Source of the DNA: a virus
Length of the DNA stretch: 64,000 nt
Reading direction: 5' to 3' (one strand)
IMG/VR virus record: IMGVR_UViG_3300045988_132703
The notes under the pieces were generated by a model that was given only the letters and a program-made list of their open reading frames with translations, was not told the origin of the DNA and ran no database searches. Positions within the stretch are counted from its first letter, which is position 1. Every line of letters begins with the position of its first letter. Shown here one piece after another: positions 7,886 through 63,843 of this stretch. A program made the position numbers and the translations under genes.

Positions 7886-9049
7886 ATGTTAGATTTTGAT
7901 ATTTACTCAGATACAGACCGCGCCACCGCAGTCAAAGATGAATTATCCAAACTTACTAAACCACCCACTCAATCTCAACTTGAAACAATGGCCAATTATA
8001 TTCTTTTTGGTAAAGATTCTAATGGGCAAAATGCAGTTGACCGTGGTGAAGTTCAAATTCAAACTAAATATTCATCTTATCGCAAAAAGAAAGAAGAGTC
8101 TCTCGATGAGCTTACCGAGTCTCCTACTTTCAATGAAGCTGAACTCAAACCCATTCATCGTTCAGTTTATAAAAATCCTAAACCAGAGCTTGATCGTTCG
8201 CTTCCCGAACTCCAGCCTCTTCTCACTACCATTGCGCAATATGAATCGTAGTTAGAAGATTTAGAAAAGCTCCCGCAAACAAAAGACGTCAAAGACCGTA
8301 TCTATAATTTGAAACATTTAGTCATTTCACTTAAAAAAGAGCAATATTCACTTTAGGAAATTGTGCGCCCGCCGCTTCAATTAATGAGTTATAACCGTCC
8401 TGCGCCAGAACCTTTCGTAGACAATCTCTGCGAGAATATTGGTCCTCTCGGCTTAAAAATTGGCAATCTAACTCGATTTACTAATCCAAAAGAAGATCAT
8501 AATCAATCTCAACTTTCAGATTTTTATGATCCCACGCGCAAAGGAATTAATCTCGAAGACCCTACTCATATTTATTTTCTCATCGAGGCTTATGAGTCTC
8601 TTTATGAGAGGGGGCTAGATAATCCGTATATTAATGCTAAGTACCTAATTGAAACATTGGACTGGTATATAGATTAGGTTCCATTTGACCAGAATCGTCT
8701 GGATATTATTGCGCTCAAAAAACGCCATTGCCCCAATAGCCAAATTCGTAAATATCTTAATGAGAAATATGGATTTAATTATAGCGAAAACTATATTAGT
8801 ACAATTTACACTAAAGAAATTTGTAAAAAGATTGCGGCGCAAGTTAGTTTGCATAAAGAGAAATGGGAAAGACGTTTCGAGCCAGGAGTTTGGAAAAAGT
8901 GTTCTTGCTGCGGCGAATGGAAATTAAAAGATGCCCGCGAATTTGTAAGACGAAAAAATTCAGAAGATGGATTTACTTCTCGTTGTAAAATGTGTGATAG
9001 AAAGAAGAAATTAGCCAAGAAAATAGAAGAAAATAAACCAATAAAATAA
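7886..9049 (+). CDS. hypothetical DNA-binding-like protein with C-terminal zinc ribbon (387 aa with 3 TAG read as sense)
   Basis: Track ORFs 7886..8251, 8363..8677 and 8849..9049 are in one frame, separated only by TAG. The C-terminus has CSCCGEWK...CKMCDRKK. There is no obvious SD before the ATG at 7886. Confidence 0.55.
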
Positions 9050-9062
9050 AATAAAATTAATG

Positions 9063-9187
9063 ATCGTCGCGCAATCAAAAGCAAAACAAATGTACAAATG
9101 GTTGAAATTAGTCCATTTCAACTAGAATATCAAATTTCTGCCAATTTGAGCTTAATTTTGCTTTTGATTGCGCGACGATTTTTTTTG
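9063..9187 (+). terminator. long perfect inverted repeat plus T8 (terminator or structured element)
   Basis: A 24-bp perfect stem pairs ATCGTCGCGCAATCAAAAGCAAAA (9063-9086) with 9156-9179. The loop is 69 nt and contains its own hairpin. T8 follows. Confidence 0.65.
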
Positions 9188-9204
9188 TATAGGAAGGATT
9201 TAAA

Positions 9205-60588: not shown

Positions 60589-60589
60589 A

Positions 60590-63500
60590 TTACTCCTTTA
60601 TTTCTGAAAAGTCAATTTTACTAAATACAAAATCTTTACGAGGTTGAACATCCTCGCCCATCAAATCATAAAGCATTTGAATAGAATCATCATCTGAGAC
60701 AAGAATATCCATTCGTTGATTCTCAGGATTAAACATAGATTCTTTTGCTTTTGCTGCACTCAATGCGCCCAAGCCTTTTTCACGACTAACATCGCCTTTA
60801 ATTTGCGCTCGAGCTTTGTTAAACTCTTCATCGCTGTAAAAATAAGTGTGTTTCTTACCATTTGTAACAATGTAAAGAGGAGAGCGTAACCAGCATAGTC
60901 TATGCTCTTGAATGAACTCAGGAGCAAGATATTGTAGTGCAGACATAATAAGCAAACCAATATGATAACCATCGGACATTTATACCCTAGCTTTCGCTAT
61001 ATTTCAAGGGATTAGACTATACAATCTCAGTAGAGTCAGTATTATAGTCGTTGAACGTTTTTCCTTTTAAGGAAACTTCGCTGCGCTTGATTACCCAATC
61101 TTCAATGATATTACTGTACCGTTCCCGTTACTGAACGCCACCAAAATAATTACTTACTTGGTTTAGTTATTGAAGCTCTAAGGGACTTCCCGCAATTTAA
61201 CTGATTTAGTGCGGACTCAACTTTTGGTTAATCCGCATCCGAACAAATAGCAATTCGTCCATAACGTAGTTTAGAAGAATTGTATTTTCCGGGGATAATA
61301 TTCATCGCACTTAGGAGCAATTTAATTTCTTCATTTTCAAAAATTTTATCCTCGCTATTGGATAGGCAATTAATAATTTTCGCGTAATCCATTATTTCTA
61401 ATGGTGCTGACTATCTTTTAATAGAAAATTCTATTACAGCCATTTCGAACTATGTATCAATAATAGTCCTACGAGCCGATTAAGGCATCTAGTCGATACA
61501 GGTATTTTATTCCCACGGGATTGCCTTGCCTGCATAGGTTTAGGTTTCCCCGTTAGCCGCAATGAGCGACCCCACTGATAAGTGGCAAAGCTGTATTAGG
61601 GCAATTTTGTTTACCCCTAATGGCCAAAATTCCGTAATGCTTTTCATCTCGCGCAATGGCCATAGCTGCCGCAGCAGAATTTCCTTCTACAATTAAGAGA
61701 GTTGAATCTTGCCCAAGATATTCTGCATCAGACAATTTATCAGAAGAAAAAACTTTTCTCTTTTGATTCTTCTCAATATCTTTAGTTGCATTTAGAACAG
61801 CTGTTCTTGCTTTTTCTGCTGCTTTTTCTGCTTTTTCTTCCTTGGTAAGAAAATCTTCAATTTTCTTTTCTTCATTGGGATATTGTAAGCAGAACTTCTC
61901 AAATCCTTCGCTAAAAGCTTTACTTGCAAGACTGCGCAATTCTGGATTGTTAATCTTCGTTTTTGTTTGATTAGCGAAAGAAGGATTAACAACTTTACAA
62001 CTAACTGCATAAACCAAACCAGTTCGTGCAAGCTCGCCAGTTAAACTTTTAATTTTCTTTTGAAGAGTTTTAGTAATTGAAGTTTTTAGACCAGTGATAG
62101 GAGTACCACCTTCAGCATTAGCAACACCATTTGTGAAACAATAAAAATGTTCATTGCGCGCTTTCGTCCAAACACAAGCAATTTCAACTGAATTTGTTCC
62201 ATCGCTTAAAAAGTAAGAAATCGGATTTTCATGAACTTTATTTGCAGCTTTTTGCATAACCAAATCCATAAGACCATTTTCACTTTTATAGGTAATACTT
62301 TGTGCTGGAGAGACAGTTTCATCTCGAAGTTCAAAAGTCAATCCTTTGGTTAGAAAACTTAAATTTTCACAAGTCTTACATAAATGCTCAAATTTAATTT
62401 CAATAGGCTCAAGATTAAAGACTTGCGCATCTGGCTTATATTTTACAAAAGTACCGTTGGGCAAATTTTTATCATTATTCACTTCGGTATAATCAATCAT
62501 ATTTCCGCGTTCAAAACAAATTGAAGCTACTCGATTATCACGAACTGACACAACTGAAAATTCTTCAGATGAAAGGCAAGTAGCTTTCGCTCCAATCTTA
62601 AATATTCAACAAGAGTCGTTAATTCCTGCCCGCGACTTTACTCGCTGCTCATAGTTTCCTATGAGAATAGACTATATCTTTTTCAATCCCATTTCGACTC
62701 ACTTGAGTCTACTCTACTAATTATCTCTTGATAATTTATACCTAATAATTTATTCCAATCTGGACATTTATTTTCAAGAAGATATTTTTCGATAGTCGTT
62801 GAACTTTCATCTATAATATAACCAAATTCTCTCATTTTGTTAATTCTAAAAAGTATTGCTTGGCGTAGCGCTTCGTCTGCGCCGTATTTTCCAATTGAAA
62901 AACTTTTTTGTTTTTGCAATTTTCTTTTGTCATTATATCTGGTATCATTTTCAAAAGTAGACCAGCGAACCCGGATTCTTGGAGTTCCTCTAGCCCCTTT
63001 TTCTATGCTAATGCCATTAAAATTAAAAGAATTTGATTTAATTGGTTTAGAGTTCTTTTTATTTTCAGAACAGGTAACTAATCTTAAATTGGACTTTTGA
63101 TTATTTAATCCATTGCCATCTATGTGATCAACTATGATTTTAGGATTGGTTACTTTCATAATATAACGATGTGCTTTTCCATAAGTATCATGCTGAGCAT
63201 AATCAGTTCTTGAATTATGCAATTCTTTTGGTACCAAATACCAACCACTCTTAGGAAAAGTTTCATAATCCTCATCGTCTAAAAGAATCTCTTTTCCGCA
63301 TTTCATTAAAAATTTTTTCATCTATAACCTCTTTATAGGGTTATATTATAGATGCTTAGCTGCGTTAGGTTATCCAATCTTTAACGATTTTACTATACCG
63401 TTCCCGTTACTGAACGCCATTTAATTATTACTAATTAAATTTAGTTGTTAAAGCTCTAAGGAATTTCCCGCAATTAAAGATTTTTTAGAACAGCTATGAA

Positions 63501-63843
63501 GTCAACCGTTCAAACCAACTGCAAACTGATAATCTTTTGATGTAAATTTACCGCCAGTATGCGCATGAGAATAAATAGCTTCAAGAACATTTTCGCCATT
63601 TTCTCTTGTTCCAAAAGGAACTCCACGCCCATAATCTCTTACAGAAATGTAATTATCAGGATAAAGTACAATTTCAATTTTATTACCAAATCCCATAATA
63701 AATTCGTCAATTGAATTAGAAATAATTTCTTGGATGCCGTTGTACACGCCTTCCATATCGTTGGAACCAAGATACATCGGGATTCTCATACGAACAGCTT
63801 CCTTAAATTGAAGCGTTTCGATAGAGTTTATATCATAACTCAT
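60590..63843 (-). CDS. type IIA topoisomerase subunit B (GyrB/ParE-like), 4 exons / 3 introns (619 aa)
   Basis: Exons are 63505..63843, 61613..62596, 61231..61380 and 60590..60976, summing to 1860 nt. The spliced product reads ...AVRMRIPMYLGS...HTGGKF...AVGLNG|IGAKATCLSS...LLIVEGNSAAAAMAIARDEKHYGILAIRG|KIINCLS...ENEEIKLLLSAM...LRYGRIAICSDAD|SDGYHIGLL... Confidence 0.8.
60977..61230 (-). mobile_element. group I intron topoB-c (family II)
   Basis: P1 is GCGGAT|TAACCAAAAGTTGAGTCCGC. It is nearly identical in its core blocks to recJ-b. It ends ...GGGTATAAATG. Confidence 0.8.
61381..61612 (-). mobile_element. group I intron topoB-i (family III)
   Basis: It follows ATTAGGGGT. Core blocks are GCGGCTAACGGGGAAACC, GGCAATCCCGTGGGAAT, GTATCGACTAGATGCC and AGATAGTCAGCACC, with a P9 hairpin CCATTAGAAATAATGG. 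It ends ATTACGCG, and splicing gives RG|KIINCLS. Confidence 0.7.
62597..63504 (-). mobile_element. group I intron topoB-d (family II) carrying an HNH-AP2 endonuclease gene
   Basis: P1 is GAACGGT|...GCTGTTC with a U.G. The 5' half has TTAATTGCGGGAAATTCCTTAGAGC, GGCGTTCAGTAACGGGAACGGTATAG and CTAACGCAGCTAAGC. The 3' half has GGAATTAACGACTCT and GATATAGTCTATTCTC. It ends ...TATTTAAG. Confidence 0.75.
62683..63321 (-). CDS. intron-encoded HNH endonuclease with AP2-like DNA-binding region (212 aa)
   Basis: The track ORF has HRYIMKVTNPKIIVDHIDGNGLNNQKSNLRLVTCSENKKN (HNH) and GISIEKGARGTPRIRVRWS... (AP2-like). Confidence 0.75.
   Translation of the reverse strand: MKKFLMKCGKEILLDDEDYETFPKSGWYLVPKELHNSRTDYAQHDTYGKAHRYIMKVTNPKIIVDHIDGNGLNNQKSNLRLVTCSENKKNSKPIKSNSFNFNGISIEKGARGTPRIRVRWSTFENDTRYNDKRKLQKQKSFSIGKYGADEALRQAILFRINKMREFGYIIDESSTTIEKYLLENKCPDWNKLLGINYQEIISRVDSSESKWD

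Follow-up and report, generated by a model that had tools for sequence, protein, structure and literature searches.

Introduction

Recoding of TAG from stop to glutamine (genetic code 15) is established in phages, with proteomic proof in crAss-like phages (PMC9523058), and a survey proposes that TAG recoding acts as a regulator of late and lytic genes (bioRxiv 10.1101/2021.08.26.457843). In phAss-1 (GenBank OQ749652; Babkin et al. 2023), TAG encodes glutamine in the large terminase subunit (TerL), the portal and the tape measure, and the genome has three tRNA-Sup-CTA genes and no dedicated aminoacyl-tRNA synthetase (PMC10607447). NCBI places this phage under 'Caudoviricetes code 15 clade'. Here, we report on a 64-kb stretch of phage DNA with a G+C content of 34%, taken from the IMG/VR virus record IMGVR_UViG_3300045988_132703 and referred to as the window, in which TAG is a sense codon, behaves like glutamine, is concentrated in the late genes and never serves as terminator, and whose near-identical relatives carry a tRNA gene with the anticodon CUA (tRNA(CUA)). 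Code 15 as such is already known, including in related phages; new is the divergent lineage, of which phAss-1 is the nearest described relative.

The relatives of the window are IMG/VR contigs from pig gut and other metagenomes with 89-98% identity over the regions in common, and the complete ones among them measure 175-179 kb, which makes the window about 36% of a genome of about 176 kb. The window is thus a portion of a siphovirus-like phage of this size with a low-GC gut bacterium as host; the lineage, which is found in pig and human gut, probably infects Bacillota. Like phAss-1, it is a large gut siphovirus-like phage with TAG as glutamine in TerL, portal, tape measure and tail genes, and the structural and replication genes of the two are homologous. 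Unlike in phAss-1, whose genome of 136 kb has three tRNA(CUA) genes, located in tRNA arrays near the class III ribonucleotide reductase, there is only one such gene in the present lineage, whose sources include pig gut; in addition, the terL of the window has six group I introns. The identity to phAss-1 is 34% for TerL, 27% for the portal and 37% for the capsid protein, and no TAG position is common to both. The genus Phassvirus has been proposed for phAss-1, BK046881 and BK025033 on the basis of about 80% nucleotide identity and a shared gene set, which the window, with protein identities of 27-37%, does not reach. Judged by these identities, the window is a relative of phAss-1 at a family-like distance, outside Phassvirus and within the same broad group, which also holds the standard-code phages EF1 and E3 and Tsamsa-like phages.

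Two further sets of phages are useful for comparison. The code-15 crAss-like and Lak phages (Peters et al. 2022, PMC9523058) resemble the present lineage in having TAG reassigned to glutamine and enriched in late, structural and lysis genes, early genes that can be read in the standard code, a suppressor tRNA of their own and a host that presumably uses the standard code. They differ in belonging to unrelated lineages with mostly Bacteroidota hosts, and glutamine at TAG is proven there by proteomics, whereas it is derived here from sequence; also in contrast to them, no release-factor gene was found here, albeit by a motif search that is a weak test. The second set are large standard-code siphoviruses of Bacillota, namely Enterococcus phage EF1, Geobacillus virus E3, the Bacillus phages vB_BcoS-136 and Tsamsa, and SPbeta-like phages. 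They share with the window TerL (at most 47% identity), portal, capsid and tail genes, dnaE, the position of RuvC and the overall gene order, and in EF1 there is likewise an HNH endonuclease encoded in an intron near terL. Unlike the window, these phages use code 11 and have glutamine codons or other residues at the TAG positions of the window.

Results

TAG is translated in the late genes

The initial annotation had stated that long reading frames exist in the late region only if TAG is translated, and a comparison of translation tables 15 and 11 bore this out, as denser and longer open reading frames (ORFs) were obtained only with TAG as sense. Counting ORFs of at least 75 amino acids (aa), the coverage of the + strand over 7886-39945 rose from 52% under code 11 to 93% with TAG as sense, compared to 55% in a control with TGA as sense, and the longest stop-to-stop ORF grew from 633 aa to 2335 aa (24476-31483, with 40 in-frame TAG). 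This ORF includes the tape measure gene (24521-31483, + strand; PF10145 PhageMin_Tail on the gene calls of relatives), for which dozens of TAG in a frame free of TAA and TGA had been described; we counted 40 TAG and neither TAA nor TGA over its 2320 codons. In the whole gene set, 123 in-frame TAG are accompanied by no TAA or TGA in the same frames. TAG was also looked for at protein ends, and the terminators of the 48 genes considered were TAA in 31 cases, TGA in 17 and TAG in none. Portal, tape measure, tail and RuvC-like genes all contain TAG (most of them 5-40 each) and end in TAA or TGA, as annotated; terL, to which the same description had been applied, turned out not to be a single frame, being interrupted by six introns (see below). 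The gene calls of the public collection already read through TAG in the relatives' copies of these genes. Conserved genes of the window are open only with TAG as sense and reassignment of TGA does not help, as expected of genetic code 15.

The portal gene (14337-15896, + strand; phrog_2739 portal, E 2.9e-63) contains eight TAG. Its start reads ATG TAG (14337-14342), with a strong AGGAGG eight bases upstream, and its 3' end reads TAG TAA (15891-15896), so that TAG is both codon 2 and the last sense codon. If TAG were not suppressed, translation of this gene would stop after one residue.

TAG corresponds to glutamine in relatives and in distant homologs

The codon opposite each TAG was read in an alignment of the window to 25 loci of relatives. 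An aligned relative was available for 102 TAG sites, 40 of which were variable. In the contigs of 89-98% identity, TAG was replaced by CAA at 22 sites and by CAG at 10 sites and never by TAA or TGA; any other codon replaced it at no more than two sites, and the 32 sites with CAA or CAG outnumber those of all other codons combined. The tail genes in 31542-37654 are among those with CAA or CAG in place of TAG in close relatives. In the reverse case, where a relative has TAG and the window another codon, this codon was CAA in 59 and CAG in 57 of 133 cells (116 together). CAA is two mutations away from TAG and yet dominant, which is the synonymous drift among three glutamine codons that the assignment predicts. 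The non-glutamine codons at variable sites are as expected from ordinary amino-acid replacement.

For more distant comparisons, the recoded proteins were searched by tblastn, with X at each TAG, against the standard-code phages Enterococcus EF1, Geobacillus E3, Alicyclobacillus KKP_3916 and Bacillus vB_BcoS-136. Glutamine was the residue most commonly found opposite TAG, in 21 of 110 cells (19%) compared to a background of 3.8% (binomial p = 9e-10). Ordinary CAA and CAG codons of the window had glutamine opposite them in 15% of cases, with a residue profile that matches the one for TAG. The sum of BLOSUM62 scores opposite TAG was highest for glutamine (83), followed by glutamate (51) and serine (11), and tyrosine, tryptophan and phenylalanine did not occur opposite TAG in these homologs. 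Wherever all aligned standard-code homologs agreed on one residue, it was glutamine; these sites are TAG 59 of terL, TAG 283 of the portal (three of three homologs), residue 209 of the 22027-22770 product and TAG 571 of the tape measure (both homologs). TAG 59 of terL is the one in the F-Y-TAG-R stretch singled out in the initial annotation, and glutamine occupies this position in four of four standard-code TerL homologs.

The RuvC-like Holliday junction resolvase (40299-41045, − strand; phrog_159 and phrog_827, E about 1e-20) contains eight TAG. A search for homologs retrieved 54 proteins, 28 of which were taken into an alignment. TAG 140 is the first glutamine of E-D/N-I-Q-x-Q and TAG 210 the glutamine of S-A-Q, both columns being at least 90% glutamine, and TAG 83 falls on the glutamine of L-D-Q-A. 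The sequence LEDI-TAG-Y-Q-TAG had been proposed to fit an IEDIQxQ-type motif; this applies to its first TAG, while the second one, codon 143, lies in a variable column just past the motif. As the database proteins might themselves have been translated with code 15, the DNA of two distant resolvase homologs (three loci) was checked, and their genes proved to be free of TAG, with CAG or CAA encoding the conserved glutamines. The RuvC proteins of E. coli and of the phages E3 and vB_BcoS-136, tried as comparators, gave no useful alignment over the EDIQxQ motif. These results support glutamine as clearly the best assignment for UAG, which behaves as a glutamine codon, in line with what the initial annotation had considered most likely.

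terL is interrupted by six group I introns

The exon boundaries of terL were set by alignment to the intron-less terL of a relative, IMG/VR contig 3300045988_138203 (locus L008, 4679-6373). On the + strand, seven exons (10366-10875, 11174-11194, 11424-11462, 12438-12507, 12763-12976, 13234-13550 and 13797-14320) alternate with six introns (10876-11173, 11195-11423, 11463-12437, 12508-12762, 12977-13233 and 13551-13796), the smallest exons being 21 and 39 nucleotides long. Four of the introns match the Rfam family Intron_gpI with 73-97 bits, above the gathering score, and two with 28.8 and 21.6 bits; in all six cases, the preceding exon ends in T and the intron in G. The spliced gene encodes 564 aa with 13 TAG and is colinear with the TerL of the intron-less relative at 89% identity. 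Its product matches phrog_2 (terminase large subunit) and is 47% identical to the TerL of Geobacillus virus E3 over residues 35-563. On this evidence, terL is open only after removal of six group I introns and with TAG read as sense. Relatives hold between none and several of the six introns.

The triplet TAG TAG TAG at 12495-12503 (+ strand, exon 4) encodes the QQQ of the spliced TerL stretch DPTEPNQQQIYITSAGNK. It lies opposite CAG CAA CAA (QQQ) in the intron-less relative, and the standard-code homologs have K/Q/Q, K/S/Q and K/Q/L at these positions. The reading EPN-QQQ-IY-ITSAG given earlier for this site proved right, as EPN-QQQ is present in the relative and the continuation IY-ITSAG follows directly once intron 4 is removed.

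Intron 3 contains an ORF for an HNH homing endonuclease (11713-12435, + strand), identified only by its motif NHIDGNR-TAG-NNLVSNLEW. With seven in-frame TAG, this gene of a mobile element is written in the code of the phage. Five further matches to Intron_gpI on the − strand (44496-44788, 45446-45736, 50242-50424, 60995-61285 and 61388-61622) score 36-44 bits, below the gathering score of 50, and sit within the split dnaE, DHH and gyrB genes. HNH ORFs are also present at 46456-46941 and 62686-63321 (− strand) among the split replication genes, and in relatives the genes are either uninterrupted at the corresponding sites or hold LAGLIDADG or GIY-YIG ORFs there. Taking the six terL introns and the five sub-threshold matches together, the 64 kb hold no fewer than 11 group I introns, which makes the window unusually rich in them.

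TAG is concentrated in late genes

The late genes on the + strand contain 105 TAG in 9334 codons (11.2 per 1000), amounting to 22% of their glutamine codons, whereas the replication genes on the − strand (43057-63843) contain five in 5544 codons (0.9 per 1000). The stage-specific pattern looked for, with TAG enriched in late over early and replication genes, is thus present. The initial annotation had TAG as a sense codon throughout the structural and replication modules; this holds for the structural and other late genes and fails for replication, so that recoding marks the late programme rather than the replication module. The TAG of the replication block that are clearly inside genes are DHH codon 34, DnaB codon 338 and one in an HNH endonuclease. 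TAG-rich genes on the − strand are the resolvase and its neighbour, a 358-aa gene with five TAG and a weak radical-SAM-like match (41981-43054; phrog_9298, E 1e-12). According to the ORF calls, the first 7.8 kb hold small ORFs on the − strand, and of the 14 early ORFs examined in 244-7277, each has TAA or TGA as its terminator and none has TAG. Past the right end of the window, TAG occurs in the relatives' PhoH, endolysin, holin, glycosyltransferase and tail-fibre-like genes, and the lysis genes there are TAG-rich.

The late block (7886-39515, + strand) comprises a sigma-like factor, terL, portal, head, tail, tape measure and baseplate/tail fibre genes, with PHROG matches to TerL, portal, virion structural and tail proteins. 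It opens with the sigma-factor-like gene at 7886-9049 (+ strand; phrog_5767 'sigma factor', E 2.9e-23), which has three in-frame TAG; this putative late transcription factor may itself depend on suppression. The two head genes that the initial annotation had described as most highly expressed and free of TAG (17371-17922 and 17945-19075) indeed contain none, and the same applies to three further small late genes (19144-19623, 19627-20070 and 39535-39945). The TAG-free head genes together (17371-20070, + strand) have no TAG in 865 codons and include the major capsid protein at 17945-19075, which is 99% identical in eight IMG/VR contigs. Downstream of the tape measure, the tail or baseplate genes at 31542-35852 and 37085-37654 contain ten and three TAG, respectively, and the tail gene in between (35862-37085; phrog_1887 tail protein) contains five, all on the + strand. 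For the 136-aa product of the TAG-free gene at 39535-39945 (+ strand), the gene calls of relatives give a BclA_C (exosporium/collagen-like C-terminal) domain. The public collection indexes this protein in 365 blocks, a sign of how widespread the phage is.

The replication block (43057-63843, − strand) holds a split dnaE, a DHH/RecJ-like gene, primase, a split DnaB, AAA_24, YorF, gyrA and a split gyrB, and a dUTPase is also among the − strand genes between 40.3 kb and the right end. These − strand labels are based on Pfam hits to the relatives' gene calls. The TerL, portal, capsid and tail proteins of the window had no Pfam match and RuvC only a sub-threshold one, and PHROGs were used instead. 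A blastn search with 14337-19075 against 50,697 phage records gave no match, and GTDB genomes scanned with the capsid protein yielded no prophage.

In relatives, a tRNA with anticodon CUA lies beyond the window region

ARAGORN found no tRNA in the 64-kb window, in agreement with the initial annotation, which had placed the decoding machinery elsewhere in the genome or in the host. Contig 3300045988_138203 was walked outward from both window ends with concatenated frontier proteins; the pieces joined without conflict to 145.6 kb and, together with the window-homologous part, make up the genome minus about 1.3 kb. Besides 27 tRNAs, which form several arrays, this contig has one tRNA(CUA), which is identical in all four near-identical contigs of 175-179 kb that span its region (L119 13762-13837). 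Mapped through the relatives' loci L002 and L037, it is on the window's + strand, about 30 kb to the right of the window end, after the lysis and tail-fibre genes and about 1 kb beyond an array containing tRNA-Gln(UUG). The first base pair of tRNA(CUA) is U1-A72, which among the 27 phage tRNAs is found only in tRNA-Gln(UUG) and one tRNA(CAU). In bacteria, U1-A72 is characteristic of tRNA-Gln and serves as a determinant for GatCAB. The release-factor motif GGQ[HN][VI]N was absent from six-frame translations of the window and of the 145.6 kb of contig 138203, as judged by a regular-expression search, which is a weak test.

A tRNA-like gene whose CCA end is encoded is conserved next to tRNA-Arg(tct) in every relative (L130 8219-8295, L128 8132-8208, L126 about 7942-8018). 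Its anticodon arm, with the stretch GAUUCCUAAUC, holds UUCCUAAU, and ARAGORN reads a 4-base anticodon CCUA. An alternative 7-bp stem with a CCU triloop fits the variants of this gene better; the Rfam tRNA score is 50.9 bits. It is doubtful that this RNA decodes UAG or UAGG, or controls the switch to code 15, as a second and unconventional component of recoding; if it did, it would be accompanied by intron homing endonucleases that have adopted the code and by the 11 or more group I introns of the window. No sign of UAGG quadruplet decoding was seen in the window, as G follows TAG in 28 of 122 cases compared to a background of 32% and is not enriched, and the frames continue through TAG.

In relatives, two ORFs that look like radical SAM proteins (three to eight TAG each) and a small Cys-rich ORF follow directly past tRNA(CUA) (L119 14778-19014). 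Further on, there are ORFs resembling a Ro/TROVE protein and, by another tRNA array, an RtcB RNA ligase (L119 20598-21836; L126 8683-9951). These labels come from reading the translations only, and by their appearance the ORFs near the tRNA genes might form an RNA repair and quality-control set. One relative also shows a weak match to YrlA (Y RNA-like; L130 7737-7813, 25 bits, E 0.019) and, upstream of a tRNA array, a match to the HDV-like ribozyme RF02682 that is not significant (L130 5816-5888, 25 bits, E 0.086). Theta (HDV-like) ribozymes beside phage tRNAs have been linked to recoding (PMC10879173).

Discussion

We are highly confident that the window belongs to a code-15 phage which reads UAG as glutamine, presumably by means of its own tRNA(CUA), and in which recoding, biased towards late genes, would gate the late programme. 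According to this explanation, UAG would be read by the phage-encoded tRNA(CUA), presumably charged with glutamine by host enzymes, in competition with host release factor 1. TAG is concentrated in the packaging, portal, tail, resolvase and lysis genes, whereas it is lacking from early replication genes and from the genes of the most abundant head proteins; full-length late proteins would hence appear only once the suppressor tRNA has accumulated, and recoding would act as a translational gate on the late programme. The genome of the window itself presumably carries tRNA(CUA) as well, and the host is likely to use the standard code. That this tRNA is charged with glutamine and that recoding serves in timing are likewise probable.

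Several observations weigh against this explanation. About 30% of the variable TAG sites have non-glutamine codons in relatives (serine, glutamate, lysine and others). tRNA(CUA) was seen in the contigs of relatives only, the window being devoid of tRNAs, and it is atypical, with an Rfam tRNA score of 31.5 bits compared to a gathering score of 29 and a T stem that needs a bulge or mismatches. It is 59-66% identical to many tRNAs, among them the 27 phage tRNAs and the suppressors of phAss-1, and similarity does not assign it to an isoacceptor. As to the timing function, what speaks for it is solely how TAG is distributed among the genes.

A rival possibility is that the code change is real and the late bias has no gating role, reflecting instead drift or selection against inefficient suppression in early or highly expressed genes. 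We regard this as unlikely, though a serious contender. In its favour, the most abundant head proteins are late and yet free of TAG, and TAG sites turn over fast, with 40 of 102 being variable among close relatives and none coinciding with a TAG of phAss-1. On the other hand, TAG occupies codon 2 of the portal and conserved positions of the resolvase and TerL and is dense in lysis genes, and its pattern matches the basis of the published regulatory model (bioRxiv 10.1101/2021.08.26.457843).

It is highly improbable that TAG is read by a suppressor of the host or by leaky termination, in a strain that might lack the tRNA(CUA) of its relatives. The missing tRNAs of the window and the unusual structure of tRNA(CUA) would be compatible with this, and recoded relatives without a detectable suppressor tRNA have been reported in the phAss-1 paper (PMC10607447). 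However, tRNA(CUA) is identical in all four long contigs covering its region, and leaky readthrough cannot pass 40 TAG in one gene of 2320 codons. We also know of no bacterial host with a code in which TAG is glutamine.

A slightly smaller chance still is left to TAG being sense and encoding another amino acid, such as glutamate, lysine, serine, tyrosine or pyrrolysine. Glutamate, asparagine, lysine, aspartate and serine are frequent opposite TAG in distant homologs, one TAG of terL corresponds to serine codons in nine relatives and one TAG of a tail gene to GAG in eight, and the isotype of tRNA(CUA) is not assignable from its sequence. The label 'Pyl' given to this tRNA by ARAGORN stems purely from the anticodon, though, and tyrosine, like tryptophan and phenylalanine, never lies opposite TAG in the standard-code homologs. 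Moreover, glutamine leads both the counts and the BLOSUM62 sums, is the residue at every unanimous site and alone accounts for the dominance of CAA, a pattern to be expected only with TAG, CAG and CAA as synonyms. Finally, the idea that TAG has kept its stop function and that the late genes are broken, be it as pseudogenes, by assembly errors or in a defective phage, can be dismissed, as it is refuted by frames free of TAA and TGA for thousands of codons, TAG positions identical in up to 10 independent assemblies, homology of TerL, portal and tail proteins that continues across the TAGs, and the wide occurrence of the phage, one protein of which is found in 365 collection blocks.

Annotation in the standard code fragments the terminase, portal, tape measure, tail, resolvase and lysis genes of this lineage, and reading it requires both code 15 and intron splicing. 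The lineage leaves the known mechanism unchanged and adds a divergent case with the same early/late split that underlies the model of late-gene gating.

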